DNA of 64,000 nt from Pseudomonadota bacterium (GCA_021323675.1 JAJPKP010000071.1:64969-128968); one strand, 5' to 3'; shown: positions 2,589-32,617, counted from the stretch's first letter. Translations and numbers: made by a program. Notes: generated by a model not told the origin, from the sequence alone.

Positions 2589-3629
2589 TCAGGCGTCGAG
2601 CCGGCTTGCCCATTTGCGCGCGGGACGCCGTTCCCATCCGCGCTTGTGGTAGCCGTATGCGGCGATCAAGGGAACCGCGATCGACGCCTCGCAATACACC
2701 ATCTGCTCGAAGGTCGTATCGACCTTGCCCCAGCTTGACGCTTCCTTGAGGGTCGAGCCCGACAGCGCGCCGTCGCGGACATCAGCCACCGTCACCTGGA
2801 TCGCGTATTTGTGCATCGGAACGTCGTGGCCGAGAATTTCGGCGGCGACGACGATGTCTTGGGCGAAGTTTTTGGGCACGCCGCCGCCGATCATGAGAAG
2901 CCCGGTCTCGTTGCCGAGCACCTTGATACGGGTGAGCTCGTGAAAATCCTGCGCGCTGTCGATTGTAACCCTGGCGCCCTTGGCTCGCGCCGCCTGATGC
3001 GCAACCAGGCCAAAGCCCGCGGAACAATCGCTGAAGGCCGGACAGAAGATAGGGACGTGCTCGCGATAGGCTTCGAGCACGATGCTGTTGTCGGCGCGGG
3101 CTCCCGTCTCGGCGAGATACTTACCCATCTCGCCCACGAACTCCCGCGATGAGTATGGGCGCGGTTCGAGCTGATCGGCGATTTTCCTGATCGTTTCGTC
3201 GCAAATGCGAAGCTCGTCTTCGTCGATGAGGGTGTCGTAGATGCGATCGATGTGAAGTTCGCGCAGCACTCCGTCCTCCAGCCCGGCGCGCAGGCGTTCG
3301 TCGGCGATATAGTGGCGGAAGCCGAGCGCCTCGAAGAAGTCCTGATCGACGATATTCGCGCCGGTGCTCACGACCGCATCGACCATCCGGTTGCGGATCA
3401 TGTCGGCGAACACTTTCTTGAGACCCGCGCTGACCAGCGATCCGGCGAGGCACAGGATGACGGAGCAGTTCGCATCGCGGAGCATCCGGTCGTAAATTTC
3501 GGCGGCCCGCGCCAGGTCGCGCGCGCTGTACGCCATATGCTTCATGGCTTCGACCAGCGGCACAACGTCGTGGCGGGTAATATCGACGTGCTGGATGGTT
3601 TCGGAGAGATATTCAGATTTTGACGGCAT
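2589..3629 (-). CDS. deoxyhypusine synthase homologue (DHS-like)
   Basis: 346 aa with DHS-family motifs (GANIVDQD, IGGGVPKNF) and the conserved catalytic-lysine context EASSWGKV. AGGAAGGA Shine-Dalgarno before ATG 3629; 24 nt downstream of the ECF T-component gene. Confidence 0.85.
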   Translation of the reverse strand: MPSKSEYLSETIQHVDITRHDVVPLVEAMKHMAYSARDLARAAEIYDRMLRDANCSVILCLAGSLVSAGLKKVFADMIRNRMVDAVVSTGANIVDQDFFEALGFRHYIADERLRAGLEDGVLRELHIDRIYDTLIDEDELRICDETIRKIADQLEPRPYSSREFVGEMGKYLAETGARADNSIVLEAYREHVPIFCPAFSDCSAGFGLVAHQAARAKGARVTIDSAQDFHELTRIKVLGNETGLLMIGGGVPKNFAQDIVVAAEILGHDVPMHKYAIQVTVADVRDGALSGSTLKEASSWGKVDTTFEQMVYCEASIAVPLIAAYGYHKRGWERRPARKWASRLDA

Positions 3630-3653
3630 CGCGTCCTTCCTGTCTTCTGCCTG

Positions 3654-4439
3654 CTATCCGGGCGTGATAGCGCCGTAGCCGGTGTAATAGATGAGAAAAT
3701 ATCCGGTCGCGATGGCGAACAGAGTGAGCCCCGCGACCACGTCCGCAGGCATCACAGGATACTCGATCAAGGTTGTGGGATTATTACGCAGGCCGAAGCC
3801 GCGCGCCTCGAGCGCCATCGCCATGTTGTTCGCCCTGCGCAGGGCAGACATAAAGACCGGAATAACCACGGTCACGTAGCGGCGCATCCGCTCGAAAAGC
3901 CCGCCCTTCTCGAAATCGTAACCGCGCAGCTTCTGCGCATCGACAATCGTCATCGCGGAGTCGATGAACAGCGGCACCAGCCGGAACGCGAGCGAGATCG
4001 CGAAGCCGACGCGGTAGGATACTCCGAGCTTGGCCAGGCCGACGGTGAACTCTTCCACCCGCGTGGTCGAAAGGAACAGCACCGAAGCGCCGAGTAATTC
4101 GGCAAGTTTGATTCCCCGGCCAAGCCCGTACACGAGCGAGCCGCGGCTGACGTGGACGAACGGCAGGTTTATCAGGGGCGTGCCCTGCCGATAGAAGAAA
4201 AGCCAGACGATGGTGGTCGTGAAGACGAGGATTATGAAGTACCAGCGATAGCGGTAGAAGTTGCGCCACGAACCGGTAAGCTGCGCAACCCACAGCATGA
4301 AGATGCCGATCGGCAGAAGCGCGATCGGATTGTCGACCCAGTAGACCGACCAGAACATCACGAACAACGCGATCACCTTGACGGTGGGATGCAGCCGATG
4401 AACGAAGGTGCCGCGATCGAGATAGAGCTGAATCGCCAT
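3654..4439 (-). CDS. ECF transporter T component (EcfT/CbiQ family)
   Basis: Polytopic membrane protein of the CbiQ/EcfT family. Start moved to the internal ATG (MAIQLYLDRG...) that forms an ATGA overlap with the stop of the upstream ATPase gene at 4439-4441. Confidence 0.8.
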   Translation of the reverse strand: MAIQLYLDRGTFVHRLHPTVKVIALFVMFWSVYWVDNPIALLPIGIFMLWVAQLTGSWRNFYRYRWYFIILVFTTTIVWLFFYRQGTPLINLPFVHVSRGSLVYGLGRGIKLAELLGASVLFLSTTRVEEFTVGLAKLGVSYRVGFAISLAFRLVPLFIDSAMTIVDAQKLRGYDFEKGGLFERMRRYVTVVIPVFMSALRRANNMAMALEARGFGLRNNPTTLIEYPVMPADVVAGLTLFAIATGYFLIYYTGYGAITPG

Positions 4440-6175
4440 CAGGCCCGCTCCTTGATCCAATCGGCCAGCGCCTGCGGGGTCAGGGCCAGCGCGCCGAAGC
4501 GGCGGCTGAGCCGGGTCACTTCCGGCGCGCGAAACGACGAATGCGCAAGAAGATCATCCTGAGCGAAAAATTCCGCGACGGTGCCGTCAAACAGCTTGCG
4601 GCCCTTGCGGATCAGAACGACGCGGCGCGCGTATTCCGCGACCAGCCACGGCGTATGGGTGATCATCACGATTGCGATTCCGCTGCGGTTCAGATCCTCC
4701 ACCAGCGCCATCATCCGGCGCTGTTCGCGATGGTCGAGGCCGGTGGTCGGCTCATCAAGAATCAAAAGCCGGGGACGCAGCGCCAGCACGCTCGCCACCG
4801 CGACCCGCTGGCGCTCGCCCTTGCTGAGCAGGAACGGATCCTTGTCGCGCGCGTCCAGGAGTCCGACGGCTTCGAGCACCTCGGCGCATCGGCGCTCAAT
4901 CTCCCGCTTGTCGAAGCCGAAGTTGCGCGGACCGAAAGCGACTTCGTCCCAGACCGTCGCGGCGGAAATCTGATGGTCCGGGTTCTGGAACACGTAGGCG
5001 ACCTCGCGCGCGGTCTCTGCCGCTCGCAGCGACGCGCGGTCGCGTCCTTCCAGCATCACGCGCCCTTCGTTGGGCTTGAGCAGCCCCACGATATGCTTGG
5101 CGAGAGTGGTCTTGCCGGAGCCGTTCTGCCCGACGATCGCGAGAAAGTCCCCGCGCTCGATGCGCAGATCGATGCCCTTCAGCGCGTGGACGTTTTCCGA
5201 ATAGCTGAAGGAAAGACCCGTCACCTCCACCAGCGGCGGCTCCCCGGATCCCGCCGGATCGGGATCTTTCGAGAGCGCCGTTGGCGAGGCGGGCGAGAAT
5301 GTCCGCAGGCGCGGAAAGGTCCGCACGATCGCTTCATACGCCTGGTCAACGCTGTCGGCATGCCCGCCGATGCCGAGCAAATGCAGGACGCGATTGAGTC
5401 CGGGAACGTGCACGCCGCACTCTTCGAGCAGATCGAAGTTTGTCATCACCTCCGCGGGAGGCGCGTCGGCGACGATCGTTCCGTCGTGGAGCAGAATGAT
5501 GCGGTCGGCGCGCATCAGTTCCTCGGACTCGTGCTCGATTACCACCAGGCTGAACCCCTGCTCGCGCAGCTTTGCGATGAGCGCGAAGACTTCCGCTTTG
5601 CCTTCGGGATCGAGATCGGTGGTGGGTTCGTCCAGGACGATGATCGAGGGCCTGAGCGCGAGCACGGAGGCGATCGCGAGCCGCTGCTTCTCTCCTCCGG
5701 AAAGCGAAGTCGGGTCGCGATGCTCAAAGCCCGCCAGTCCGACCGCTTCGAGCGCCGGGCGCAGGCGAGCCTGCATTTCGCCGCGCGCCATCCCCACCTG
5801 CTCCATGGCGAAAGCGACCTCGAGCTCGACGCTGGTCGAAAAGAGTTGCGCCTCGAAGTCCTGAAACACCATCCCGACCTCGGCGGCGGCCTCGCATATG
5901 CGCATCGCGTCGAGGCGGCTCTTTCCAATCATCACGATTCCGCGAAAGTCGCCTCCCTCGAATTCCGGAACGAGGCGATTGAGGCATTTGGCCAGGGTGG
6001 ATTTTCCCGCGCCCGACGCGCCCATAATCGCGATCATCTCGCCATGCGCTTGATCGAGACTGAGCGCGCGCAGCGCCGGTCCCGGTTCGCTCGGGTAGGT
6101 GTAGGTAACGTCCCGGACGGACAGAGCGGTATCGGCGGGCGTTCCCGCAATCGCGCTTTGCAGCTCGGTCTTCAC
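4439..6175 (-). CDS. ECF/ABC transporter ATPase with duplicated ATP-binding cassettes (EcfA1-EcfA2 fusion type)
   Basis: 578 aa. Two Walker A motifs (GASGAGKST and GQNGSGKTT) and two ABC signature regions. Confidence 0.85.
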   Translation of the reverse strand: MKTELQSAIAGTPADTALSVRDVTYTYPSEPGPALRALSLDQAHGEMIAIMGASGAGKSTLAKCLNRLVPEFEGGDFRGIVMIGKSRLDAMRICEAAAEVGMVFQDFEAQLFSTSVELEVAFAMEQVGMARGEMQARLRPALEAVGLAGFEHRDPTSLSGGEKQRLAIASVLALRPSIIVLDEPTTDLDPEGKAEVFALIAKLREQGFSLVVIEHESEELMRADRIILLHDGTIVADAPPAEVMTNFDLLEECGVHVPGLNRVLHLLGIGGHADSVDQAYEAIVRTFPRLRTFSPASPTALSKDPDPAGSGEPPLVEVTGLSFSYSENVHALKGIDLRIERGDFLAIVGQNGSGKTTLAKHIVGLLKPNEGRVMLEGRDRASLRAAETAREVAYVFQNPDHQISAATVWDEVAFGPRNFGFDKREIERRCAEVLEAVGLLDARDKDPFLLSKGERQRVAVASVLALRPRLLILDEPTTGLDHREQRRMMALVEDLNRSGIAIVMITHTPWLVAEYARRVVLIRKGRKLFDGTVAEFFAQDDLLAHSSFRAPEVTRLSRRFGALALTPQALADWIKERA

Positions 6176-6957
6176 ATCAATGCGAGCCCGGCGAATGCGA
6201 GCAGGATCAGCGGACTGACGAGAATAGCGATCGACTTGTCATGGGGCGCCGCGTTCATCCAGGCCGGAAGGAATGCCGGCACCCAATATCCCGTGGAGAG
6301 CAGATTTCCGAGCGCCCACGCGCCCCCCTCTCCAATCATCAGCAGCGCGATTCCGGCGACCCTGAGCGCGGCCGGCGGCGGCGTGAGCTCCGGCATCACG
6401 TCCTGATAAAGCATCCGGCCCTTGCGCACGCGCGGATATACGGCGGCAAGGATGAACGGCGACAGGACCATCGCCGAAGCCATGTTATTCAGGATGATGA
6501 CGTTGCCGAGCATCGCAAACGGCCGTATCGCAAGCAGATTATCACCCCATCCGACCAGATCGGCGCACAGCACGCTGGCGAGCAGACAGGCGAAGACGTA
6601 CTTCGCAAGGCCGAGCGGAGAACGGGGAACGGGGCTCTCGCCGCCTCCGATAGTCTCCCAGACCTTGAACGGCACCAGACCATAAACGAGGTTGGCGAAG
6701 AACCCGAAGATGTCTCCGGGCGAGGCACCGCCGAAGAAATCGCCGATCATGTTCCCGATCGCGCTTCCCCACGCCGCAGCCGGGCCGAACAGAAACGAGC
6801 ATACGACGGGGATTGCGTTGGCCGGCCTGAGCTCGGTGACGCCGGGAATCAGCGGCACGACCTTGAACGGCACCAGCACCGCCGCATACAGCGCCGCCGA
6901 AATCGCGCATAGCACGACCATCCGCGTGTTGCGCCACATCAATCTGAGGCCGTTCAT
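6172..6957 (-). CDS. ECF transporter substrate-specific (S) component-like membrane protein (QueT-like)
   Basis: Polytopic membrane protein directly upstream of the ECF A and T genes. The start is ambiguous: the ORF reaches 7104, but the hydrophobic core begins around MNGLRLMW (ATG 6957; alternatives 6939 and 6921). Confidence 0.55.
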   Translation of the reverse strand: MNGLRLMWRNTRMVVLCAISAALYAAVLVPFKVVPLIPGVTELRPANAIPVVCSFLFGPAAAWGSAIGNMIGDFFGGASPGDIFGFFANLVYGLVPFKVWETIGGGESPVPRSPLGLAKYVFACLLASVLCADLVGWGDNLLAIRPFAMLGNVIILNNMASAMVLSPFILAAVYPRVRKGRMLYQDVMPELTPPPAALRVAGIALLMIGEGGAWALGNLLSTGYWVPAFLPAWMNAAPHDKSIAILVSPLILLAFAGLALM

Positions 6958-7046
6958 TCGACGAATGATTACGCCAGCAACGCGAGCATGCGATAAGATT
7001 TCCGTCCGGAGCGGCGGGGAGGCACGCCCTGTCCGAAGCCAATTGC

Positions 7047-7820
7047 GTGATCGACAGCCACGTTCATCTCGACGCTGACCAGTATGCCGACCCATCAGGC
7101 GCAATCAAGCGTGCGGTTGAAGCCGGTGTTACAGCGATGGTCGCGCCCGGAACCGGGGGAGCATCGAATCGCCGCGTGATCGAACTGTCCCGCCGATATC
7201 CAAAGGTGGTCTATGCCGCCTGCGGGTTCCATCCGGAGCGATTCGACCTGACGGATGCGGACCTGGAGGAGGCCCTGGAGACGATTCGCCGCGAGAGAGA
7301 CTCGCTATGCGCCGTGGGCGAGGTCGGGATGCCCTGGTATGGCGACCGGGCCCGCGATCCGCGCCTTATCGCGCGGGCAAGGCGGGTCCTGGAGCGATGC
7401 GCGAGCGCCGCGGTCGAAGCTGATTTGCCGATGATCATACATGCGCCTCACGACAGCGCGCGCGAGGCGCTCGGGATTATCAAGGAGGCCGGCGTGCGGA
7501 TGGCGGTTTTTCATTGGCACAAGTCCGACGATTCGACCACCCGCGCTATCCTCGATGCGGGCTATTTCATTTCGCTAACACCGGAAGTCGCCTACCGAGA
7601 TCGCGACATCCGGCTGGCCAGGATGGTGCCGCTCGAAAGCATGCTGCTTGAGACGGACGGACCGTGGCCGTATCGAGGTCCTTTCGAGGGACGCGCGACT
7701 GAGCCGGCGATGGTACTCGACGCGGCGGGCGCGGTTGCCCGCGCGCTAAGCCTTGAGCGCGAGATGGTGGGCGCGATGACGACCGCCAACGCCCGAAAGC
7801 TGTTCCGCATCGCGACCTGA
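7047..7820 (+). CDS. TatD family hydrolase
   Basis: 257 aa. IDSHVHLD metal-binding motif and TatD-family architecture. GTG start. Confidence 0.85.
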   Translation: MIDSHVHLDADQYADPSGAIKRAVEAGVTAMVAPGTGGASNRRVIELSRRYPKVVYAACGFHPERFDLTDADLEEALETIRRERDSLCAVGEVGMPWYGDRARDPRLIARARRVLERCASAAVEADLPMIIHAPHDSAREALGIIKEAGVRMAVFHWHKSDDSTTRAILDAGYFISLTPEVAYRDRDIRLARMVPLESMLLETDGPWPYRGPFEGRATEPAMVLDAAGAVARALSLEREMVGAMTTANARKLFRIAT

Positions 7821-8531: not shown

Positions 8532-9332
8532 TTACTCGGGCATGAACGACGGACTGCCCGTCTTGGCGGTCTGGCCGCCGTCCGCGACAAACGCGGCACC
8601 GGTGACGAACGATGCCAGGTCTGAGGCGAGGAACAGGACCACGTTCGCCATCTCCTCGGGCTTGCCCAAACGTCCCATCGGGATCGCCTCGCGAAAGCGA
8701 TCTCCGAAACCCGGCATCTCCAGCGCCGGCGCGAGCAGCGGCGTATCGATCGCTCCGGGGCAGATGCAATTGACGCGAATTCCGTCGCGCGCGTATTCGA
8801 TGGCCGCCACCCGGGTAAGGTTGATAACGCCGGCTTTGGCGGCGTTGTACGCGGCGATGCCGTAATCGGCGCGAAGTCCGGAAATCGAGGCGGTGTTAAC
8901 GATCGCGCCCGAACGCTGGGCGCGCATGATCGGCAGCACGCATTTCATCGCGCGCCACACCGCCGTCAGACCGACATCGATCATGTAGCCCCATACGCCG
9001 TCTTCCACGTCCGCAAGCCGCCCCGCGGCCTGTGTGCTGGTCTGCGCGGCCGGCAGCCCGAAGGCGTTGTTGTGAACAAAATCGATTCGGCCGAAACGCC
9101 GATTCGTATCGGAAATCATCTTCTCGATATCGGCGGGCTTGGTGACGTCGATGGTCATCGCGGCCGCGCGGCCTCGGGCCTCGACAATCTCGTGCGCGAC
9201 CTTTTCGGCATTCTCGCCGTTGATGTCGGCGATGACGACCGTGCCGCCGCGCGCGGCAAACCCTATCGCGGTGGCGCGCCCGATTCCGGAGCCGCCACCG
9301 GTTACAATTCCAACTTTGCCGTCAAAACGCAT
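8532..9332 (-). CDS. SDR family oxidoreductase
   Basis: GKVGIVTGGGSGIGRA Rossmann motif. Start set at MRFDGK (ATG 9332), which has a GGGAGA Shine-Dalgarno 7 nt upstream. Confidence 0.85.
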   Translation of the reverse strand: MRFDGKVGIVTGGGSGIGRATAIGFAARGGTVVIADINGENAEKVAHEIVEARGRAAAMTIDVTKPADIEKMISDTNRRFGRIDFVHNNAFGLPAAQTSTQAAGRLADVEDGVWGYMIDVGLTAVWRAMKCVLPIMRAQRSGAIVNTASISGLRADYGIAAYNAAKAGVINLTRVAAIEYARDGIRVNCICPGAIDTPLLAPALEMPGFGDRFREAIPMGRLGKPEEMANVVLFLASDLASFVTGAAFVADGGQTAKTGSPSFMPE

Positions 9333-9503
9333 CGCAGTGTCTCCCAATGCAGATGTTCGTTCATAGTCGATGAAGAACAAATTTTCGAGAGTTCGCCCGC
9401 CTGCTGAAGACGTGCCTCGGGGCGGACGCGGCTCCCGCTAACCGATGCGGCGGCGAATACGCTATGGTCCCGCGTGGACAATCTCACTCAGGGAGATATT
9501 TCT

Positions 9504-10259
9504 ATGAGGCTTGCGGGAAAGGTTGCGCTGATTACCGGCGCCGGCTCGGGAATGGGACGCGCAGCGGCATCGCTGTTCGCGCGCGAAGGGGCGAAGGTCG
9601 CCGCGGTCGATATAAATGAAGCATCCGCCAAGGATACCGTGGCGGCCATCGCGCGTGAGGGCGGAGAAGCGTTCGCGATGCGGGTGGACGTTTCCAACTC
9701 CGAGGACGCGCGCGCGATGTGCGACGAGACGGTGCGGCGCTTCGGCGGCCTGGACATCCAGTACAACAACGCAGGCATCGAGGGTGAAGGCGGGTTTCTC
9801 GCCCAGCTCAGCGAGGAAGCTTTTGACCGTGTAATCGCGATCAACCTGCGCGGCGTATGGCTGGGAATGAAATACGCCCTGCCCCACATGATCGAGCGCG
9901 GCGGAGGATCGATCATCAACACGGCGTCGGTCGCCGGACTGGTCGGTATCAAAGGTGCCGCGGCGTATTGCGCCGCCAAGGCGGGCGTTATCTCGCTCAC
10001 CCGCGTCGCCGCGATCGAGTACGGCCGCTACAAAATTCGCGTGAACTGCATCTGTCCGGGAGTGATCGACACTCCGATGGTGGAGCGGGTGTCGGAAGAA
10101 GGCGGCGTCACCGCGCAGGCCAACGATCGCCTCTCGGTGCTGGGGAGAATCGGCAAGCCCGAGGAGATAGCGCGAACCGCCCTGTTCCTTGCCAGCGACG
10201 AGGCGGGATTCGCCACCGGCGCTCCGTTCGTCATCGACGGCGGATGGGTCGCGCGCTGA
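9504..10259 (+). CDS. SDR family oxidoreductase
   Basis: MRLAGKVALITGAGSGMGRA. ATG 9504 is preceded by GGGAGA. Confidence 0.85.
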   Translation: MRLAGKVALITGAGSGMGRAAASLFAREGAKVAAVDINEASAKDTVAAIAREGGEAFAMRVDVSNSEDARAMCDETVRRFGGLDIQYNNAGIEGEGGFLAQLSEEAFDRVIAINLRGVWLGMKYALPHMIERGGGSIINTASVAGLVGIKGAAAYCAAKAGVISLTRVAAIEYGRYKIRVNCICPGVIDTPMVERVSEEGGVTAQANDRLSVLGRIGKPEEIARTALFLASDEAGFATGAPFVIDGGWVAR

Positions 10260-10274
10260 GCAGGAGAGACTTCG

Positions 10275-11045
10275 ATGCCCACCGCGATAAGCAGGCTTCA
10301 AGGCAAAGTTGCGATTGTAACCGGGGCCGCACAGGGGATCGGACGCGCGATTGCGATGCGGCTTGCGGCTGAGGGCGCGGCCGTCGCGATAGCCGATGTG
10401 CTGGAGGACGCGGCGGAGCGCACGGCCGCGGAAATCCGGTCTTCGGGAGCAAAGGCGATTGCCGTCGCGCTCGATGTGACGAAATTCGACGATGCGGTCC
10501 GGGCGGCGGACATGGTCGAAAAAGAACTCGGCCCTATCGACATCCTCGTGAACAACGCGGGATGGGACAAGCTCGAGCCCTTTGTGAACAGCTCGCCCGA
10601 GACCTGGGACAAGATCATCGCGATTAACTACCGCGGGGTTCTCAACTGCTGCCGCGCGATCGCGCCAAAGATGCAGGCGCGCAGCTCCGGAAAGATCGTA
10701 TCGATTGCCTCGGACGCGGGTCGCGTCGGTTCGACTGGAGAGGCGGTATACGCGGGGTGCAAAGCCGGCATCATCGGCTTTTCCAAGACGCTCGCCCGCG
10801 AGCTCGCTCGCAACCGGATCAACGTGAATGTCGTATGCCCCGGTCCGACCAAGACCGCGCTGTTGCGCGAAGCGATGGCGGGGCGCGAGGGAGTCCTGGA
10901 GGCGATGGCGAAGGGAATTCCGTTTCGGCGGCTGGGGCAGCCGGAGGACCTCGCGGGCGCGGTAGCGTTTTTGGCTTCATCCGACGCGGACTACGTGACC
11001 GGCCAGGTGCTGAGCGTGAGCGGAGGTCTCACGATGGCGGGTTAG
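10275..11045 (+). CDS. SDR family oxidoreductase (FabG-like 3-oxoacyl reductase type)
   Basis: LQGKVAIVTGAAQGIGRA with the NNAG and YxxxK motifs. AGGAGA Shine-Dalgarno. Confidence 0.85.
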   Translation: MPTAISRLQGKVAIVTGAAQGIGRAIAMRLAAEGAAVAIADVLEDAAERTAAEIRSSGAKAIAVALDVTKFDDAVRAADMVEKELGPIDILVNNAGWDKLEPFVNSSPETWDKIIAINYRGVLNCCRAIAPKMQARSSGKIVSIASDAGRVGSTGEAVYAGCKAGIIGFSKTLARELARNRINVNVVCPGPTKTALLREAMAGREGVLEAMAKGIPFRRLGQPEDLAGAVAFLASSDADYVTGQVLSVSGGLTMAG

Positions 11046-11122
11046 AGCGGCTCGCCTTGATCGCCGGCGATGCCTGAACTATCGTTCAGAACGTCAGCTT
11101 TGATAAACGGAGCGTTGTCCGC

Positions 11123-11863
11123 ATGGCCGCAGGCGAATCCTACACCGCACTCAAATTTTCCGGACCCGATGGGCTGCCCGCGGAGTACAAGGATCTGCTG
11201 GTCCGGATGCTGTCGATCCAGTCGCGCATCGAGTCCGAATATATGCTGGCGCCGGAGCGCACTCTGATGAAGCCGCTCGCGATGGCGCCGACCGCGGAGG
11301 ACAAGGCCGAGTACGCGGCGTTCTGGTCCGACGAGGTCCGCCATGCCAGCTACTGGATGAAGCTGCTCGAAGACCTTGGGGTTCACGTCGATGACGCCTT
11401 CATGGCGACACCGATGCCTATCTACATCTTCGAGATGCGCGATCGGGCGGAGGATTGGATCGAGTACGGCCTGTTCAGCTTTTTCGCGGACCGCCAGGGC
11501 GCGTACATGGGTTACGAGTGGGTGGGATGCTCGTACGAACCGCTCGCGCGGATCGCGGACCGCGTGCATAAGGAAGAACTGGGGCACGCCGCGTTCGGCT
11601 ACAAGCTGCTGCGGCGCAATCTGCAGCGCGACCCCGAGCACGGCCGTGAAAAGCTCATCCACTATCTGAAGAAGTGGTACCCGGCGGGGCTGGATATGTT
11701 CGGCAAGTCGGGATCGAAGCGCCAGCACGAGTTCATGCGATGGGGACTCAGGCGGCGCACCAACGAGCAGATGCGCGAAGAGTTTGAAGAGGAAGTGAAC
11801 GCACTTCTCGATCGCCTCGAAGTTCCGATTCCGGATGCGACCGCGGGCCGCCGCTTCCTGTAG
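11123..11863 (+). CDS. ferritin-like diiron protein of the phenylacetate-CoA oxygenase PaaA/PaaC family (short form)
   Basis: Two E-x2-H diiron motifs (DEVRH and KEELGH) positioned as in PaaA, but only 246 aa, and no paaBDE partner genes nearby. Confidence 0.6.
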   Translation: MAAGESYTALKFSGPDGLPAEYKDLLVRMLSIQSRIESEYMLAPERTLMKPLAMAPTAEDKAEYAAFWSDEVRHASYWMKLLEDLGVHVDDAFMATPMPIYIFEMRDRAEDWIEYGLFSFFADRQGAYMGYEWVGCSYEPLARIADRVHKEELGHAAFGYKLLRRNLQRDPEHGREKLIHYLKKWYPAGLDMFGKSGSKRQHEFMRWGLRRRTNEQMREEFEEEVNALLDRLEVPIPDATAGRRFL

Positions 11864-11914
11864 CACAGCCTTGAGCCGGGCCATCGCGCCCGGTTGCCCG
11901 GGGAGGAAAGCACC

Positions 11915-12580
11915 TTGAAGAAGTCAGCAGCCGAGCCGCTTGTTCCGCGGCGAATCGCGAAAGTCAAATCCGCCGCCCGGCAGCCAAGTCCGGACGAGCG
12001 CTACGATGCGAACATCGATCATATCCTGCGCGCGGCGGCGGCGGTCTTCGCGGAGAAGAGCTTCGGGCTCGCATCGATAAGAGACATCGCCGCCCACGCG
12101 CACATCTCCTTTCCGCGCATCTATTACTACCTGCGCAACAAGGAGGAATTGCTTTATCTCATCTCGCGCCGCGCATTCGAGGAATTGCTGAGGCGCGCGG
12201 ACGAAGCGGCGCGCGGCGCTCCCGATGCCGCCGCGCGGCTGCGCAAATTTATCGCAGGCCATCTCGAATACCACATGGACAATCTCGCCGAGATGAAGGT
12301 GCTGGTGCGCGAGGCCGACTCGCTCTCCGGGCGCTACTCGGCCGACATCGCGCGGCTCAAGCGCGACTACTCGCGGCTGTGCCGCAGGATAATCGAGCAA
12401 TTCGCGGAAGAAAGCGGCCATACGCTGGATCGCGAGCGAAGCCGAATTCTGACGTCGCTTCTGTTCGGGTCGATGAACTGGTTTTACACCTGGTACGAAC
12501 CGTCGCGCGATTACGAGCAGCGCTCGCGCATCATGGACGAAGTTTTTCGGATGGTCGCCGGATCGATAGCGGAGCACTAG
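11915..12580 (+). CDS. TetR/AcrR family transcriptional regulator
   Basis: N-terminal HTH (FAEKSFGLASIRDIAAHAHISFPRIYYYLRNKEEL). Start taken as TTG 11915 with a GGGAGG Shine-Dalgarno 8 nt upstream; the ORF could alternatively begin at TTG 11894. Confidence 0.75.
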   Translation: MKKSAAEPLVPRRIAKVKSAARQPSPDERYDANIDHILRAAAAVFAEKSFGLASIRDIAAHAHISFPRIYYYLRNKEELLYLISRRAFEELLRRADEAARGAPDAAARLRKFIAGHLEYHMDNLAEMKVLVREADSLSGRYSADIARLKRDYSRLCRRIIEQFAEESGHTLDRERSRILTSLLFGSMNWFYTWYEPSRDYEQRSRIMDEVFRMVAGSIAEH

Positions 12581-12586
12581 CGCCGA

Positions 12587-14254
12587 ATGATCGACGGCTG
12601 CACGCCATATCCCGCGGAATTTCGCGATCGCTACATTCGCGATGGATATTGGCGCGCCGAGACCATCTTCGATGCGGTGGCGGATTCGGCGCGCCGCAAT
12701 AACGATCGGCTCGCCGTAGTCGATTCGCACCGCTCTTTGACCTTCGGACAACTGCTGGAGGAATCGCGAAGGTTTCGCGCGACGATGGCGGCATGCGGCC
12801 TGAGCCGCGGCGACCGGGTGATAATCCAGCTCCCCAATTGCGCGGAATTTGCGAGCCTGACGCTGGCCTGCTTTGAACTGGGCGTCATTCCAGTGATGGC
12901 GCTGCCGGCGCTCCGGCGCGCGGAACTCGAGCATCTGGCTAAGCTTTCGGCGGCGAAGGCCATCGCGATCGTGCCCGAGTATCGAGGCTTCGATCATGCG
13001 GGTCTGGCGCGCGAGTTGATGCGCGATTGCCCCTCTTTGGAGCGCATCTTCAGCGTTTCCGCGGCGCCGGGATGCGTGGAGCTGGGCGGCGCTCCTTCGG
13101 CGCATGCGCCCGCAAGGGTTGCAGGCGGCGATGCGTTCGCGGCAGCCCTTTTCCTGCTGTCCGGCGGAACGACGGGGCTTCCCAAGCTGATTCCGCGAAC
13201 CCACGCCGATTACCTGTACAACGCGCGGGCGGCATCGGAGGTCTGCGGGCTCGACGGGTCGAGCAGAATTCTGATTGCGCTTCCGGCCGAACATAATTTT
13301 CCACTGGCGTGCCCCGGAATGATCGGCGCGATGCTGACGGGAGCGGCGACGGTGTTTGCGCAATCGACGCGGGCGGCCGACCTCGCGGCAACGATCGCGC
13401 GCGAGCGCATCACGCACTTCCCATGCGTGCCCGCCCTGGCGATCGCGCTGTTGGAGCTGCCGGAGCGCGACCGCGAACAACTCGCGCCGCTGCGGGTGAT
13501 AACCGTCGGCGGCCAGCGCCTTCAGGAACCCACGGCGCGCGCGCTCAAGCTTGCCTGCCCCTGGCTCACGGTCCAGCAGGTGTTCGGAATGGCGGAAGGC
13601 CTGCTTTGTTACACTCGTCTTGACGATCCGGAAGATATCGCGTGCACGACGCAGGGCCGTCCTCTTTCGCCCGGCGATGAAATCCGCATCGTCGATGCGT
13701 TCGGCCGCGATGTCCCACAGGGCGAACCAGGCGAGCTGTGGTGCCGCGGACCTTACACTATTCGCGGCTACTATCGAGCGCCCGAGGTTAACCGCGATGC
13801 GTTCAGTGCGGACGGTTTCTACCGCACCGGCGATATCGTGCGCATGACGCCTTCGGGCAACATCACCGTCGAAGGGCGCATCAAGGATCAGATAAATCGG
13901 GGCGGCGAGAAAATCAGCGCCGAAGAAGTCGAATCGCACCTGATCGCGCATCCGGCGGTTTCGTCCGCCGCGGTGGTGGCAATGCCCGATCGCACGCTCG
14001 GCGAGCGCGCCTGCGCGTACGTAACGCTGCGGCCGGGCGCGGCCCTCACCCTGGACGCGATTCGCGAGTATTTGTTGAGCCGCGGCCTGGCGCGCTTCAA
14101 ATGGCCGGAACGCCTTGAGATCATCGACGCGATGCCGCTGACGAACGTGGGAAAGATCAAGAAGGCCGAGCTTCGACGCGACCTCGAGACTCGGCTGGAT
14201 GTCGAGGAGCAGGCCGGGCGGCGCCGCGACGCGCGCGACGAGAAGCGCGCGTAG
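12587..14254 (+). CDS. aryl-acid adenylating enzyme, DhbE/EntE-like ((2,3-dihydroxybenzoyl)adenylate synthase family)
   Basis: Close sequence match to DhbE/EntE throughout (YIRDGYWRAET, GGTTGLPKLIPRTHADYLYN, QQVFGMAEGL, YRTGDIVR, GGEKISAEEVE). No aryl-carrier-protein gene is adjacent. Confidence 0.85.
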   Translation: MIDGCTPYPAEFRDRYIRDGYWRAETIFDAVADSARRNNDRLAVVDSHRSLTFGQLLEESRRFRATMAACGLSRGDRVIIQLPNCAEFASLTLACFELGVIPVMALPALRRAELEHLAKLSAAKAIAIVPEYRGFDHAGLARELMRDCPSLERIFSVSAAPGCVELGGAPSAHAPARVAGGDAFAAALFLLSGGTTGLPKLIPRTHADYLYNARAASEVCGLDGSSRILIALPAEHNFPLACPGMIGAMLTGAATVFAQSTRAADLAATIARERITHFPCVPALAIALLELPERDREQLAPLRVITVGGQRLQEPTARALKLACPWLTVQQVFGMAEGLLCYTRLDDPEDIACTTQGRPLSPGDEIRIVDAFGRDVPQGEPGELWCRGPYTIRGYYRAPEVNRDAFSADGFYRTGDIVRMTPSGNITVEGRIKDQINRGGEKISAEEVESHLIAHPAVSSAAVVAMPDRTLGERACAYVTLRPGAALTLDAIREYLLSRGLARFKWPERLEIIDAMPLTNVGKIKKAELRRDLETRLDVEEQAGRRRDARDEKRA

Positions 14255-14284
14255 CCGCAATTCGAACTATCGGGAGAGACGGCA

Positions 14285-14986
14285 GTGGATGTGCAAAAAG
14301 GACTTCGCGAGCTTGATGGATTGATCCGGCGGCTGGAGCGCAACAATCGCACCCTGAAATCGCATCCGACCATCGAGAAGATCGAACGCGGCGAGCTGAC
14401 GATGCCGCAGTTGCGGCATTGGGCCACTCAACTCTTCGTCGGCAACAAAGGCCACAACGCGAAGATCCTCGGGCTCATCTACGCCAAATGCGACGATTTC
14501 CCCGCGCGCAAGGCGATCGTCGAAAACCTGATCGAAGAGGAACTCGGCCGCGTCTCAGGCGTCAACCGGTCGCATCCCGAACTCTACCTCGAATTCGGCG
14601 AAGCCATCGGCATTCCGCGCGACGCGCTTCTGCACGCGGCGATGACGCCCGATGCGACAGCGATGATGCATTGGATGTACTGGCTGGCCGATTCGAAGCC
14701 CTGGTACGTGACGCTGGCGGGCATCAGCCTGGGATCGGAGTTGTTCAATCCCGATGCCTATGTTCGGGTGATCGACGGGCTCAAGCGTCATTACCATCTT
14801 TCGGATGACGCCCTGCTCTTCTTCTCGGTTCACGTGAAGGTGGACAAGGATCACGGCGATTCGAGCGCCGGCTCGATCTTCCGTGCGATCCCGGAAAGCG
14901 CCGCCGCCGAGACACTGTGGGCGGTGGAGACGCACATCGAGTTCATGCGCCGCCTCTGGTCGGATATCGACCCGCCCGCCGCGTAG
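14285..14986 (+). CDS. CADD/PqqC/TenA-like haem-oxygenase-like diiron oxidase (HDO) family protein
   Basis: Alignable to the chlamydial CADD protein: KCDDFPARKAIVENLIEEELG...SHPELY and H-x3-D-x2-H (HVKVDKDH) supply the six metal ligands. GTG start with a GGGAGA Shine-Dalgarno. Confidence 0.7.
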   Translation: MDVQKGLRELDGLIRRLERNNRTLKSHPTIEKIERGELTMPQLRHWATQLFVGNKGHNAKILGLIYAKCDDFPARKAIVENLIEEELGRVSGVNRSHPELYLEFGEAIGIPRDALLHAAMTPDATAMMHWMYWLADSKPWYVTLAGISLGSELFNPDAYVRVIDGLKRHYHLSDDALLFFSVHVKVDKDHGDSSAGSIFRAIPESAAAETLWAVETHIEFMRRLWSDIDPPAA

Positions 14987-15059
14987 TCGGGAAGATTCAA
15001 ACGCGGCAGGCGCCTGCCGCCCGAACGTAGCAATCGCGCTCGCGAGGAAAGGCGAGCGG

Positions 15060-16142
15060 CTACGGCCGCTTGAGGTCCTGGATGATCTCCTTGAGCACGC
15101 CGCGGTCGTGATCGTTGCGGACCGGCATATCGAAGCTGAGACGATTCACGCCGGCGAACCGCTTTTTGATCCTCGCGGCGATTTCATCGTAGGTGCCGAC
15201 TGCGGCGAACGCATGGACCATCTCTTCGCTGACCAGCTTCGCCATCTCGCGCCATCTCTGCTGGACTGAAAGCTTGTGCAGCTCCTCGGCGGTATCGGCC
15301 CATCCATCGAGCTCGAAACTGGAACGGTACGAGCGGGTGGAACCATAGAACGCGATGGTCGCTTTCATGTTCTCGACGCCGCGGGCAACCGCGTCCTTGT
15401 CCTTGCCGGCTATCAGGAACCCGCCGCCGCCGATCTGAAACTGGTCCCATTCTGAAGCGGGCCGGCCGGACTTCTCGAAGCCCTTTTTGAGGTTGGGAAA
15501 CGCGATCTGGTCGAGATATTTGCGCGTTACGATTCCGTGCAGGCGGACGCCATCGCACACCTCGCCGGCAACCTGCAGCATCCGTTCCTGCACGGCGGCA
15601 ATCAGCACGGGGATATGCGGATGCGCCTGCGGGGGCGGCGAAAAGTTCGGCGTCATCAGCGAGATATTGTAGTGCTCGCTGCGAAAGTTGAGCGGCTCGC
15701 CCGTCTGCCACGTGCGCCAGCACGCGCGCATCGCGCCGACATAGTCTTTCATCCGCTGCGCAGGCTTCGACCACGGCATCCCGAATCTGCGCGTGACATG
15801 GCCCTTCACCTGTGATCCGAGACCCAGGACCAGCCGTCCACCGCTCATTCGTTGCAGGTCCCAGGCAGTGTAAGCGGTGGCGACGGGGCTCTTGGTGAAG
15901 CAGAGGGCGATTCCGGTTCCCAGCTCGATCTTCGCGGGCTCCTGCGCGGCGATCGCAAGCGCAAGGTAGGGATCGTGCTGGGTTTCAACCGCGATAGCGG
16001 TGTCGTATCCCAGCGACTCGGCATCGCGCACCTGGTCTCTCAGCGTTGACCAGGTGGGCTCGGGCCGCTTGCCCTCCTGCTGCATGTCGGGCGAGTAGGG
16101 AGTTCCGAAATGAAGTCCGCGTTCTACCTTGATGGTGGCCAT
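15060..16142 (-). CDS. LLM-class (luciferase-like) flavin/F420-dependent oxidoreductase
   Basis: Luciferase-like monooxygenase fold similarity. Start ambiguous between TTG 16178 and ATG 16142. Confidence 0.75.
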   Translation of the reverse strand: MATIKVERGLHFGTPYSPDMQQEGKRPEPTWSTLRDQVRDAESLGYDTAIAVETQHDPYLALAIAAQEPAKIELGTGIALCFTKSPVATAYTAWDLQRMSGGRLVLGLGSQVKGHVTRRFGMPWSKPAQRMKDYVGAMRACWRTWQTGEPLNFRSEHYNISLMTPNFSPPPQAHPHIPVLIAAVQERMLQVAGEVCDGVRLHGIVTRKYLDQIAFPNLKKGFEKSGRPASEWDQFQIGGGGFLIAGKDKDAVARGVENMKATIAFYGSTRSYRSSFELDGWADTAEELHKLSVQQRWREMAKLVSEEMVHAFAAVGTYDEIAARIKKRFAGVNRLSFDMPVRNDHDRGVLKEIIQDLKRP

Positions 16143-16208
16143 GCGCCGTTTATCTCGTTGCGCAGGCAATGATGTCAAGCGCGCATGGCAGAGAATATCG
16201 CGCCCGGT

Positions 16209-17456
16209 CTATGCGATTGCGATCCCGGGGGCCGGAAAGCCGCGGCACATCTCGCTGACCTCCGCGGCGATCCGCTTGAGGGCAGCTTCGTCATCCGCGC
16301 GCGCGATCGCATCGTCCATCCAGCCGGCAATCCGCTTCATCTCGGCTTCCTTCATCCCGCGCGAAGTCACCGCGGGAGTGCCGAGCCTGATGCCGCTGGG
16401 GCTGAAGGGTTTGCGCGGGTCGTAGGGAACGGTGTTGAAATTGCAGATGATCGCGGCGGTTTCGAGCGCCTTGGCGCCCTTCTTTCCGATCACGCCCTTG
16501 TTGGTTAGGTCGACCAGCACCAGATGATTGTCGGTGCCGCCTGAGATCACGCGGAAACCGCGCGCCATCAGCTCCTCGGCGAGCGCCTTTGCATTGGCGA
16601 CCACCTGGCGCGCGTAGGCCTTGAACTCCGGCGTCGCGGCCTCCTTGAGCGCGACTCCGATTGCGGCCGTGGTGTGATTGTGCGGGCCTCCCTGGAGCCC
16701 GGGGAAAACGGCCCGGTCGATTTTGTCGGCCAATTCAGCCTTGCACATGATCATCGCCCCGCGCGGGCCGCGCAGCGTCTTGTGCGTGGTGGTCATGATC
16801 ACGTCGGCGTGAGGGGCGGGATCCGGATGAACCCCGCCGACAATCAGGCCCGCGACGTGGGAGATGTCGGCCAACAGGTAAGCGCCCGCCTCTTTCGCGA
16901 TTTCGCCGAAGAGCTTGAAGTTGAGCTCCCGAGGATATGCGGTAGTGCCGGCGATTATGATTTTCGGACGTTCCTTGAGAGCCAGATCGCGGAGCGCATC
17001 GTAGTCGATTCGATGCGTCTCGCGGTCCACGATGTAAGGCACGGTGGTCCAAAGGCTGCCCGAGAGCGTGACGCCCCAGCCGTGGCTCAGATGGCCGCCG
17101 TGAGGCAGCGACAGACCCATCAGCTTTTCGCCCGGCTTCGCGAGCGCGTAGTAAACGGCAAGATTTGCGGGAGAGCCCGAGTACGGCTGCACGTTGGCAT
17201 GATCGACCCCGAACAGCTTTCGTGCGCGATCGACCACGATGCTTTCGACCTGATCGATGTACCGCTGGCCCTCGTAGTAGCGGCGCCCGGGATAGCCTTC
17301 GGAATACTTGTTGGTGAGGACCGAGCCAGTCGCCTCGAGTACCGCCTTCGAAACGTAATTTTCGGACGGTATCAGCCGCACGGTCTCGAGTTCGTACCGT
17401 TCTTCCTGGCGAATTATGTCGTAAAGTTCGGGGTCAGTTCGCTTTAGTTCGTCCAC
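16209..17456 (-). CDS. glyA: serine hydroxymethyltransferase
   Basis: Full SHMT similarity (RLIPSENYVS, PLP-binding region). Start chosen as GTG 17456 (VDELKRTDPELYD...), which has a GGGAGG Shine-Dalgarno 7 nt upstream, rather than the ORF-track GTG 17477. Confidence 0.9.
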   Translation of the reverse strand: MDELKRTDPELYDIIRQEERYELETVRLIPSENYVSKAVLEATGSVLTNKYSEGYPGRRYYEGQRYIDQVESIVVDRARKLFGVDHANVQPYSGSPANLAVYYALAKPGEKLMGLSLPHGGHLSHGWGVTLSGSLWTTVPYIVDRETHRIDYDALRDLALKERPKIIIAGTTAYPRELNFKLFGEIAKEAGAYLLADISHVAGLIVGGVHPDPAPHADVIMTTTHKTLRGPRGAMIMCKAELADKIDRAVFPGLQGGPHNHTTAAIGVALKEAATPEFKAYARQVVANAKALAEELMARGFRVISGGTDNHLVLVDLTNKGVIGKKGAKALETAAIICNFNTVPYDPRKPFSPSGIRLGTPAVTSRGMKEAEMKRIAGWMDDAIARADDEAALKRIAAEVSEMCRGFPAPGIAIA

Positions 17457-17559
17457 ACCCGCACCTCCCGGAGACACTCAAGCCTATAGACCGGTGCATC
17501 CTGAGGCAAAACCTACGGGCGCATCGCGCGAGGAGCAACAGTTGCTCTATGGGCCAGGC

Positions 17560-18921
17560 TTACTGGAGATCGGGAGGGGTGACCTTGGCAATCCACTCGC
17601 GGAAACTGCCGGTGTAGCCGACGGACTGCTGCCGATCGCGAACCCGGCGGACGATACCTTCGACCTGGTCGGCCGAGAGCTTGGGCCGCGCATCAACCAG
17701 CGACGCGATCTTTTCGCCCTCGGCATGCGCCTCTTTGCGCGCTCCATCAGCAATCGGTATCTGTTCGCCGCTAAGACCCAGGTATGCCTCGGCAACCCGG
17801 ATACCGACCTCGGTTCCGCTCTCGAGCGAGTCCTTGATGTTGCCTTTGCCGGTCAGAACGTTGCCCGCGGCAAACACCGCCGTGGGTCCGTCGATCAGCA
17901 AGCCGGCTTTTTCGTCGGCGTACCTGTAGGTCTCGCCCTTCTGCGGAATTCCGGGGATCGGCTCGGGAATACTGCCGATCGAGCTGATCGTAAGGGGCGC
18001 TCGCACCGTTTCGACCCGGTTGGGGAGAATCCGCACCTGGCCATCGGAGACTTCGGTGACGCTGAACTGAACCCCCACCATCCTGCCCTCTTCGACCACG
18101 ATACCGGTGGGGGCGCGCAATTCCTGAAACTCGAACAGGAACTTGCGCATCGCTTTTTCCAGGATCTTGGTCCGGGCCATCCGCAGGCTTTCAACGCGTT
18201 TCGCGGGCGCGTCCGGCGGAATATCGGACAGGGGCATGTCGAGCACCCGCCGGCGGTAGAAGAGCTTGCAGGGGGCGATACCCAGGTCCGCCCAGGTGAG
18301 ATTGTGGCCCTGCAGCACGGCGTCGATTCCCTCGCGCTCGAGCCGCACCATTTCTTCGCGGATGCCGCGGGCGGCCAGAGTCCTCTGCGCCATCTCGATT
18401 TGCAGGACCTTGACCACGTCGATCGACGCGAGCCCGCCGCCGACGACGATGGCTCCCGGCTTCAGGTCGTAGCGCGGACCTTTGTAGCCTTGCTCCTGGT
18501 AGTGATTGAACCAGTAGATGAGCGCGTTCTGGTAAATCAGGCCCTTGTCGACGAACTGATCGGCGCCCTCGACGGGCAAGGGGCGGTCGCGCCATGCGCC
18601 GTGCGTGAGCACGATCGCGTTAAGGCCCCATCCGGTGCGCAAAGTTTCGAAGTCGATATCGCGGCCCAACCTGGTAAGAGGGACGAAGGCAACGTTGGGA
18701 TGGTCGAGGCGGCGATTAATCTCCTCGTATTCGTCCTTGCGCTGCTTTACATGCCATCGCGGCAGACCGTCCTCGATCTTGCCGTAGGGTCGCGGATTCT
18801 GCTCGAACACGATCACCAAGGCGCCGCGTTCGGCGAGAATACGGGCAATCTCGGAGCCTGCGGTCGCCGCTCCGATGACCGCGACGATGTGTCGCGCGGC
18901 AACTTTGTCCGGTTCAGCCAT
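17560..18921 (-). CDS. FAD/NAD(P)-binding oxidoreductase (two-dinucleotide-binding-domain flavoprotein; function unknown)
   Basis: N-terminal Rossmann motif IVAVIGAATAGSEIA and a second GxGxxG region (IVVGGGLASIDV), 453 aa. Confidence 0.6.
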   Translation of the reverse strand: MAEPDKVAARHIVAVIGAATAGSEIARILAERGALVIVFEQNPRPYGKIEDGLPRWHVKQRKDEYEEINRRLDHPNVAFVPLTRLGRDIDFETLRTGWGLNAIVLTHGAWRDRPLPVEGADQFVDKGLIYQNALIYWFNHYQEQGYKGPRYDLKPGAIVVGGGLASIDVVKVLQIEMAQRTLAARGIREEMVRLEREGIDAVLQGHNLTWADLGIAPCKLFYRRRVLDMPLSDIPPDAPAKRVESLRMARTKILEKAMRKFLFEFQELRAPTGIVVEEGRMVGVQFSVTEVSDGQVRILPNRVETVRAPLTISSIGSIPEPIPGIPQKGETYRYADEKAGLLIDGPTAVFAAGNVLTGKGNIKDSLESGTEVGIRVAEAYLGLSGEQIPIADGARKEAHAEGEKIASLVDARPKLSADQVEGIVRRVRDRQQSVGYTGSFREWIAKVTPPDLQ

Positions 18922-29646: not shown

Positions 29647-30070
29647 GGTCTTCGCTCTGAGGGTTCAGGTCCGAACCGAACATCAGCGTCGCGATCGGAT
29701 CGGTGCTCAGTTCCTCGCTCAGCGTCCCGACAGGAGCGGTTACGGAAAGATAGGCCGCTACTGAGGCGGCGATCAGAGCCGCCGCCGCGGCGCTCACTGC
29801 AAGCCGCCCTCTCCTCCTGACACTGGCGCGCATCATCGCCGCGGGACGGCGGGCGGCGGGAGAATCAGCCGGTTCGGGCCGGTCAGCGGCCGGACGGCGA
29901 GGCGGCTCGACGGCGGACTGCAGCACCGGCGCGCTCATCGCAAAGGTCCGAAAGGCACGATCGCACTTTGGACAGGCGGCCAGATGGGCGGTCAGAGCGG
30001 CGCGACGATCGGGCGCAAGCTCGCGCCGCCAAAAGGCGGCGAATTCCTGTCTGGCTTCAAAGCAATCCAT
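29636..30070 (-). CDS. anti-sigma factor, zf-HC2 type (RsrA/ChrR-like)
   Basis: MDCFEARQEF...AHLAACPKCDRAF carries the H-x3-C-x2-C zinc motif, followed by a TM segment. Start set at ATG 30070, 10 nt after the sigma-factor stop. Confidence 0.65.
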   Translation of the reverse strand: MDCFEARQEFAAFWRRELAPDRRAALTAHLAACPKCDRAFRTFAMSAPVLQSAVEPPRRPAADRPEPADSPAARRPAAMMRASVRRRGRLAVSAAAAALIAASVAAYLSVTAPVGTLSEELSTDPIATLMFGSDLNPQSEDLAG

Positions 30071-30080
30071 GATCGTTCTT

Positions 30081-30716: not shown

Positions 30717-30797
30717 GGTTGTCCTCTTGATAATACGAACGCCCCGCAAAGCGGTTACGCGATTATGGACGGCCGGCAAACGCCCCAACCATCGAGG

Positions 30798-31415: not shown

Positions 31416-31427
31416 GACGGCCGCTCG

Positions 31428-32579: not shown

Positions 32580-32617
32580 GCTTCTGATTTAACCGTATCA
32601 GAAAAGTCCCGCTCCGG

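Follow-up and report, generated by a model that had tools for sequence, protein, structure and literature searches.

We analyzed a gene cluster at positions 8532 to 16142 of a 64-kb stretch of DNA (referred to here as the window), in which a siderophore-type aryl-acid adenylase, a stand-alone PaaA-like diiron oxygenase, and a heme-oxygenase-like dimetal oxidase (HDO) are encoded on the same strand. The window has a G+C content of about 62%. Its proteins are identical to those encoded by an ENA metagenome contig (L001 in our list of loci), and their closest homologues are named Candidatus Binataceae, Binatus, or Binatia. Because the closest homologues bear these names, the source is an uncultured Binatota (Candidatus Binataceae) soil bacterium and not an actinobacterium, the origin to which the G+C content and the F420 matches would point.

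Open reading frames (ORFs) of the window were scanned with Pfam and NCBIfam (TIGR) profiles, and the orthologue or equivalog cut-offs were used to decide on family membership. The genes of the cluster and those that follow it are listed below.

8532-9380, minus strand: SDR1, a short-chain dehydrogenase (SDR), divergent from the operon (Pfam adh_short_C2, 3e-64; called gene, 8532-9332)
9474-10259, plus strand: SDR2, which opens the co-directional block (Pfam adh_short_C2, 5.9e-72; called gene start, 9504)
10275-11045, plus strand: SDR3, a BadH-like SDR, 15 bp after SDR2 (best NCBIfam match, TIGR03206)
11123-11863, plus strand: stand-alone PaaA-like ferritin-fold diiron oxygenase of 246 aa (Pfam PaaA_PaaC, 85 bits)
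11894/11915-12580, plus strand: TetR-family regulator (TetR_N and TetR_C_24), ending 6 bp ahead of the adenylase gene
12587-14254, plus strand: EntE/DhbE-family aryl-acid adenylase of 555 aa, an AMP-binding enzyme (TIGR02275, 556 bits)
14285-14986, plus strand: CADD-like HDO, a Haem_oxygenas_2/TENA protein, 30 bp after the adenylase gene (Pfam Haem_oxygenas_2, 94.6 bits)
15060-16178, minus strand: F420-type luciferase-like oxidoreductase (LLM), convergent with the HDO gene (TIGR03617, 380.7 bits; called gene, 15060-16142)
16209-17477, minus strand: serine hydroxymethyltransferase (SHMT)
17560-18921, minus strand: 453-aa flavoprotein resembling the small subunit of glutamate synthase

From SDR2 to HDO, six genes are co-directional, separated by gaps of 15, 77, 30, 6, and 30 bp. 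An earlier reading made from the sequence alone (the sequence-only reading) had described three SDR genes at 8532-11045, followed by a PaaA-family protein, a TetR regulator, an adenylase, and an HDO. All three SDR genes are present, the middle one on the plus strand, and the other four genes were located where expected or a few codons away. The F420-type LLM that was said to follow the HDO exists as well; it lies on the minus strand and is convergent, so it is not a member of the operon. A minus-strand ORF overlapping SDR2 (9462-10301) had no Pfam match. The same gene block recurs in 113 related loci with protein identities of 60 to 94%, and its genes are therefore real and not chance ORFs.

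Conservation of the gene block

An alignment of the PaaA-like protein was used to search GTDB species genomes and JGI metagenomes, and every gene of the window was then scored by tblastn against 166 loci. The locus list includes 113 loci of the Binataceae type and 38 outside Binataceae, with some duplicates (L005 = L063, L009 = L166, and L010 = L164). In the Binataceae-type loci, the block SDR2-SDR3-PaaA-like-TetR-adenylase-HDO was always present where the contig allowed it to be seen. HDO belonged to the operon in every one of the 75 loci that reach far enough, and it directly followed the adenylase gene in 66 of 68, the exceptions (L053 and L056) having an insertion of about 2 kb. The inserted segments (L053, ~13094-14905; L056, ~3314-5482) contain an ORF of 603 or 722 aa and may be mobile elements. 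Median identities across the Binataceae loci were 89% for HDO, 84% for LLM, 81% for the PaaA-like protein, 79% for SDR3 (conserved in 80 loci), 76% for SHMT, 75% for SDR2, 72% for TetR, and 65% for the adenylase. No other gene of the block is as well conserved as HDO, which also exceeds the housekeeping SHMT.

The adenylase gene adjoins the PaaA-like gene in Binataceae, in a second clade of metagenome-assembled genomes (MAGs), and in a subclade of Chloroflexota, the pair being found in 28 of the 38 loci outside Binataceae. In the second MAG clade, where the PaaA-like protein is 63 to 71% identical to that of the window, an adenylase of 45 to 50% identity (pocket segment HNFGLAAPG) is encoded directly upstream of it in every locus extending far enough, and the flanks vary. 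Two loci of this clade (L005 and L065) have a BenC/MmoC-type reductase gene after the pair; upstream of the pair, L005 encodes an intradiol dioxygenase, a PnpD-like protein, and a hydrolase. In the Chloroflexota subclade, the order is PaaA-like gene (54% identity), an ORF of 111 aa, and then the adenylase gene (52% identity; pocket segment HNFPLSSPG). The adenylase and the PaaA-like oxygenase are the best-supported unit of the locus: their two genes recur as a module in three lineages, at times with a gene for an oxygenase reductase or a ferredoxin beside them. The sequence-only reading had grouped the PaaA-like, adenylase, and HDO genes together; this grouping holds across lineages for the first two, and the link to HDO is seen in Binataceae only.

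In one locus of the Chloroflexota subclade (L011, 375-1854), the PaaA-like ORF runs on into the AMP-binding C-terminal domain of an adenylase, which a sequencing frameshift probably explains, and the gene for a 90-aa 2Fe-2S ferredoxin comes next.

The adenylase and the PaaA-like oxygenase

Residues 5 to 530 of the adenylase align end to end with positions 3 to 526 of the TIGR02275 profile (E value, 6.5e-167), and its alignment to DhbE (1md9) spans DhbE residues 1 to 532. The full-length match to DhbE/EntE proposed previously is confirmed by both alignments. The score of 556 bits lies under the TIGR02275 cut-off of 723, which makes the protein a family member and not an equivalog. Its best matches in the PDB are all aryl-acid adenylating enzymes: the 2,3-dihydroxybenzoate (2,3-DHB)-AMP ligase 6e8o, which we take to be FscC (532 bits); the salicylate-AMP ligase CahJ (5wm2; 517 bits); PchD (491 bits); DhbE (1md9; 482 bits); and chain 5kei, presumably MbtA (441 bits). 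The next class, the 4-coumarate-coenzyme A (CoA) ligases, reached only about 150 bits.

The pocket of the adenylase resembles those of the salicylate enzymes. Its segment HNFPLACPG is identical to that of 5kei and near those of CahJ (HNFALACPG) and PchD (HNFTLCCPG), the motif HNF.L.CPG being common to all four, whereas the corresponding segment in DHB enzymes is HNYPLSSPG or HNFPMSSPG. A later segment reads GLLCYT, compared with GLVNYT in the DHB enzymes. At the positions of DhbE Tyr236, Ser240, and Val337, the adenylase has Phe, Cys, and Leu and so departs from the 2,3-DHB pocket; CahJ and 5kei have the same trio, and PchD has Phe, Cys, and then Ile. In structural work on DhbE, replacement of Ser240 by Cys and of Val337 by Leu or Ile reportedly marks specificity for salicylate over 2,3-DHB. 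Judged by these residues, the pocket is of the salicylate type and not of the 2,3-DHB type. Because of the Cys at DhbE Ser240 and the Leu at Val337, the predicted substrate is most likely a salicylate-like ortho-substituted aryl acid, and 2,3-DHB, one of the candidates put forward earlier, is disfavored. Every PaaA-linked adenylase that we found has the family motif HNF..PG, and the pocket residues vary among them.

The adenylase had been described as lacking a nearby aryl-carrier protein or nonribosomal peptide synthetase (NRPS), and this extends to the whole window. The Pfam-scanned ORFs of the 64 kb contained no carrier-protein, NRPS, condensation, isochorismatase, or isochorismate/salicylate synthase domain, and no ORF of at least 60 aa had a phosphopantetheine-site motif. 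About 55 related genomes gave the same picture: within flanks of 20 kb, the neighbors that were identified included neither a carrier protein nor a condensation domain nor an isochorismate/salicylate synthase. Since no carrier protein is nearby and the enzyme is paired with a PaaA/BoxB-like oxygenase, CoA is the likely acceptor of the aryl group, and the adenylase probably acts as an aryl-CoA ligase. There is precedent for such a step in SdgA of the Streptomyces SdgABC system, which acts as a salicylate-CoA ligase (PMC11848710). The p-hydroxybenzoyl-CoA hydroxylase PhgA is a further precedent for a CoA-dependent route.

The PaaA-like protein scored 85 bits with Pfam PaaA_PaaC, well over the threshold of 28.5. 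Its diiron ligands (E37, E71, H74, D123, E152, and H155) were invariant in 19 homologues of 47 to 90% identity, and the six positions align with the ligand columns of PaaA (two E..ExxH half-sites and an Asp). A model of the protein obtained with AlphaFold (AF2) had a predicted local distance difference test score (pLDDT) of 92.6. Foldseek ranked PaaA chains (4ii4, 3pvr, and 4iit; TMq, 0.77 to 0.79) at the top for this model, followed by the uncharacterized Sulfolobus protein SSO1313 and then by BoxB and PaaC. As modeled, the protein has the PaaA/BoxB fold and the full six-ligand site. PaaA and BoxB, its two characterized fold relatives, are both aryl-CoA epoxidases.

No gene for PaaB, PaaC, PaaD, or PaaE was found among the Pfam-scanned ORFs of the window or in L001. 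The picture drawn previously, of a PaaA-family protein with both E-x2-H motifs and none of these partners, proved correct. We rejected a canonical Paa pathway because PaaBCDE are missing and the score is under the orthologue cut-off. The public label "ring-1,2-phenylacetyl-CoA epoxidase subunit PaaA," carried by homologues of the protein, is unsupported by the family cut-offs.

The heme-oxygenase-like dimetal oxidase

The product of the last gene of the block is assigned to the HDO fold by Pfam Haem_oxygenas_2. Its best NCBIfam match was the CADD model TIGR04305, at 85 bits against a cut-off of 200, and the PqqC model TIGR02111 gave 30.8 bits against a cut-off of 240. We rejected identity with PqqC or TenA on these scores and regard the label "pyrroloquinoline-quinone synthase" (JGI) on homologues as over-annotation; the label "TenA family transcriptional regulator" is likewise unsupported by the family cut-offs. 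The AF2 model (pLDDT, 93.8) best matched CtCADD in the PDB (template modeling [TM] scores, 0.83/0.90; 22% identity), and further fold matches were PqqC, BesC, and UndA. The ligands E85, H97, E152, H183, D187, and H190 were invariant or nearly so in 40 family members. Thus, the 3-His/3-carboxylate dimetal site is intact, and the protein appears, by sequence, to be catalytically competent.

CtCADD makes p-aminobenzoate (pABA) by cleaving its own Tyr27 and Lys152, with a tyrosine relay formed by Tyr141 and Tyr170 (PMC13108848). At the positions of Tyr27, Lys152, Tyr141, and Tyr170, the HDO has Ile30, Val162, Ser151, and Phe179. CADD-type chemistry is excluded because Tyr27, Lys152, and the relay are all replaced, and we rejected a self-sacrificing pABA synthase of this type as the function of the protein. 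The sequence-only reading had noted six metal ligands together with the loss of the sacrificial Tyr; both observations hold, and Lys152 is also gone. The HDO shares the fold and the dimetal site with the pABA synthases CADD and NePabS, and it differs from them both in these residues and in its place among homologues. An exhaustive HMMER search put it in a tight Binataceae clade, beyond which identity falls abruptly to 30 to 37%. A seeming outlier with 51% identity (P0091) turned out to be a frameshifted copy.

HDOs have repeatedly been found to catalyze unusual chemistry, and this clade, with its intact metal site and strong conservation, is a good target for enzyme discovery. In Binataceae, HDO is very probably co-expressed with the operon. 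One contig of 10 kb (L007), which has no adenylase gene, PaaA-like gene, or LLM gene, carries a copy of HDO whose neighbors are a fragment resembling SDR3 and a gene for a ZIP metal transporter.

Proposed pathway, alternatives, and surrounding genes

We tentatively favor a reading in which SDR2, SDR3, the PaaA-like protein, TetR, the adenylase, and HDO form a Binataceae-specific, TetR-controlled operon that oxidizes an ortho-substituted, most likely salicylate-like, aromatic acid via an activated acyl intermediate. With the adenylase using CoA as acceptor of the aryl group, the aryl acid would become an aryl-CoA. The ring of this ester would then be epoxidized or hydroxylated by a two-component diiron mono-oxygenase that has the PaaA-like protein as its hydroxylase and draws electrons from a reductase whose gene lies elsewhere. 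The BadH-like SDRs might process the hydroxylated or alicyclic CoA esters that result; the best match of SDR3 is TIGR03206 (2-hydroxycyclohexanecarboxyl-CoA dehydrogenase, BadH), with 320 bits and a cut-off of 431. TetR may sense an acyl-CoA, which fits because it has weak NCBIfam similarity to the acyl-CoA-responsive FadR (Bacillus) and FasR. HDO, having presumably joined the pathway in the Binataceae lineage, would use O2 to oxidize a small-molecule intermediate further or to fragment it. Formation of an aryl-CoA followed by diiron ring oxygenation is the most economical explanation, since the adenylase family activates ortho-hydroxy aryl acids, PaaA and BoxB use aryl-CoA, and no carrier protein is nearby.

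The cluster probably represents a new version of the aerobic, CoA-dependent "hybrid" pathways for aromatic acids. Like PaaABCE and BoxAB, it combines an acid-thiol ligase with a subsequent ferritin-fold diiron oxygenase that has the PaaA/BoxB fold and six-ligand site, and a BenC/PaaE-type reductase adjoins the pair in the sister clade only. It differs from these systems in its single 246-aa oxygenase, which lacks PaaB, PaaC, PaaD, and the lysine bridge described below and scores under the orthologue cut-offs; in its ligase, which is of the EntE/DhbE type and not PaaK or a benzoate-CoA ligase; and in having no ring-opening enzymes of the BoxC or PaaG/Z type here. The SdgABC and 2-aminobenzoyl-CoA mono-oxygenase/reductase routes similarly convert an ortho-substituted benzoate to its CoA ester before ring oxygenation. 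However, the ring oxygenases of the salicylyl-CoA and 2-aminobenzoyl-CoA routes are flavoproteins, whereas the candidate here is a diiron ferritin-fold protein, accompanied by an HDO.

In the open-access literature, we found neither the pairing of an EntE-type adenylase with a stand-alone PaaA-like oxygenase nor this HDO clade, which is not proof of novelty. Within that literature, the statement of the sequence-only reading that the pairing is not a described pathway stands. Its suggestion of a new aromatic-acid route fares differently in its two parts: the gene pairing makes a pathway variant probable, and the part played by HDO rests on one family. In a more speculative form of the favored reading, which we consider rather unlikely, the adenylase and the stand-alone PaaA-like protein would constitute a fourth aerobic CoA-dependent mode of ring attack, after Paa, Box, and the flavin-based 2-aminobenzoyl-CoA route. 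This mode would serve ortho-substituted benzoates, and the Binataceae HDO would split a C-C or C-N bond of the nonaromatic CoA ester or free acid so formed, in a novel O2-dependent reaction. If the pathway is as we propose, a one-subunit diiron aryl-CoA oxygenase would be coupled to a siderophore-type adenylase, and the range of bacterial routes for salicylate-like plant and soil aromatics would be wider. The operon offers a concrete catabolic trait for the abundant, uncultured Binataceae, and the analysis corrects the labels "PQQ synthase," "TenA regulator," and "PaaA" in use for its proteins.

Several observations weigh against the favored reading. The first group concerns the oxygenase. It scored 83 bits with the PaaA orthologue model TIGR02156 (cut-off, 280) and 23 bits with the BoxB orthologue model (cut-off, 499), and it was also under the PaaC cut-off. 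In PaaA, the "lysine bridge" residue Lys68 contacts Glu49, Glu72, and Asp126 (PMC4498308). This bridge is absent here, Phe67 being aligned with Lys68 (FWSDEVRH in place of AKVQDEAGH). Moreover, the Binataceae operon contains no reductase or ferredoxin gene. At least four PaaA-like loci in Chloroflexota and Methylomirabilota are without an adenylase gene (L006, L073, L081, and L163); one of them, L006, adjoins genes for an acyl-CoA dehydrogenase, a CoA-ester lyase, and a MaoC protein.

A second group concerns the adenylase and HDO. Few pocket residues underlie the substrate prediction for the adenylase. EntE-family enzymes usually load carrier proteins, and a carrier protein could be encoded outside the 64-kb window. 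The adenylase is as near to siderophore enzymes (482 to 532 bits) as to other PaaA-linked adenylases (498 to 574 bits). Outside Binataceae, all 38 PaaA-like loci lacked HDO. Its place in the adenylase operon was thus seen in a single family and could reflect inherited synteny. The copy in L007 (502-2566; frameshifted, ~77% identity by tblastn), which lies away from any adenylase gene, is the only case of HDO uncoupled from the operon.

An alternative that we find unlikely but that merits serious weight is that the locus holds two independent units. The adenylase, the PaaA-like protein, and the SDRs would form one, and HDO would act with the convergent LLM, and perhaps with SHMT and the flavoprotein, on an unrelated small molecule, the gene order being an accident of the family. 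We read the contexts of six distant relatives of HDO, and neither an adenylase gene nor a PaaA-like gene lies nearby in any of them, which also speaks against the favored reading. Two (L082 and L083) have the gene for an F420-type LLM directly downstream and co-directional, of the TIGR03619 family in L082 and Mer-like in L083, and a third (L086) has a divergent gene for an F420H2-dependent quinone reductase. A recurrent association of HDOs with F420 enzymes is possible. The remaining relatives sit among genes for TRAP or MFS transporters, an amidohydrolase, and CoA-transferases, contexts unrelated to the proposed pathway. In addition, HDO and LLM are the best-conserved genes of the region, at 89 and 84% compared with 65% for the adenylase.

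Gene arrangement within Binataceae argues the other way. HDO comes 30 bp after the adenylase gene and points the same way, in contrast to LLM, which is encoded on the other strand. LLM adjoins HDO in most, but not all, Binataceae loci, and the gap between the two is interrupted by an insertion in 12 of 54. Where synteny breaks (L034, L041, L043, L093, and L101), HDO stays with the adenylase gene and LLM is lost; in the first three of these loci, SHMT is gone too, and the block is intact. Furthermore, the three LLMs found adjacent to HDOs come from different subfamilies, and these genomes commonly encode LLMs, a second one lying in the window at 41275-42339. The spans with F420 enzymes beside distant HDO relatives are 161-1560 in L082, 2369-4040 in L083, and 5431-6708 in L086, and the HDO relatives in them are 31 to 34% identical to the window protein.

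A biosynthetic role for the adenylase, as an aryl-capping enzyme of the siderophore or NRPS type, seems improbable to us. In this scheme, it would load salicylate on a carrier protein encoded elsewhere, and the aryl group bound there would be tailored by the two oxygenases. The adenylase shares full-length homology (441 to 532 bits) with the siderophore enzymes FscC, CahJ, PchD, DhbE, and 5kei; it is no closer to other PaaA-linked adenylases than to these, and its pocket segment is the same as that of the 5kei chain and near those of CahJ and PchD. It differs from them in scoring under the TIGR02275 cut-off, in having no carrier protein or NRPS nearby, and in its catabolic-looking operon. The carrier protein, condensation domain, and isochorismate/salicylate synthase that this alternative calls for are absent from the window and, as far as neighbors were identified, from the flanks of the related genomes. 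The neighbors that are present look catabolic (TetR and SDRs and, in the second clade, an intradiol dioxygenase, a PnpD-like protein, and a hydrolase), and PaaA and BoxB, to which the PaaA-like protein is structurally nearest, both act on CoA thioesters. Finally, a CADD-type pABA synthase feeding folate or methanopterin synthesis, for which one could cite the SHMT gene two genes from HDO, CtCADD as the nearest solved structure, and TIGR04305 as the best NCBIfam match, is effectively refuted by the four replaced residues and by the TIGR04305 score, and we consider it extremely improbable.

The genes around the operon are less constant. An SDR1 orthologue of more than 70% identity occurs in only about one-third of the Binataceae loci, which makes SDR1 a variable neighbor. 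No operator palindrome for TetR was found in two candidate intergenic regions, and an Rfam scan of the window detected no riboswitch or other RNA family. LLM belongs to the MSMEG_2256 family TIGR03617 (380.7 bits; cut-off, 278.15), for which F420 use is predicted, and its next-best matches are methylene-tetrahydromethanopterin reductases. The minus-strand genes for LLM, SHMT, and the 453-aa flavoprotein (15060-18921) stay together in most Binataceae loci. A role of this LLM in one-carbon or folate metabolism is conceivable. The second LLM gene of the window is Mer-like, lies on the plus strand, and is found beside two minus-strand acyl-CoA dehydrogenase genes (region 38774-42339).

The window is rich in genes of CoA-ester metabolism, including CoA-transferase family III genes at 508-1716 and 55844-57046. 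Just upstream of the cluster, on the minus strand, lies an energy-coupling factor-type transporter (3654-7104) consisting of a CbiQ T component, a duplicated ABC ATPase, and a QueT-like S component. At 2589-3629 lies a minus-strand gene of the deoxyhypusine synthase family (Pfam DS, 315 bits), whose product is probably homospermidine synthase-like. An 868-aa plus-strand ORF of NRPS size (30069-32675) had no Pfam match and was rejected as a high-GC antisense artifact. Opposite this ORF, the minus strand encodes an extracytoplasmic-function sigma-70 factor (30081-30788), a MobA-like NTP transferase (30798-31415), and XdhC (31428-32579).

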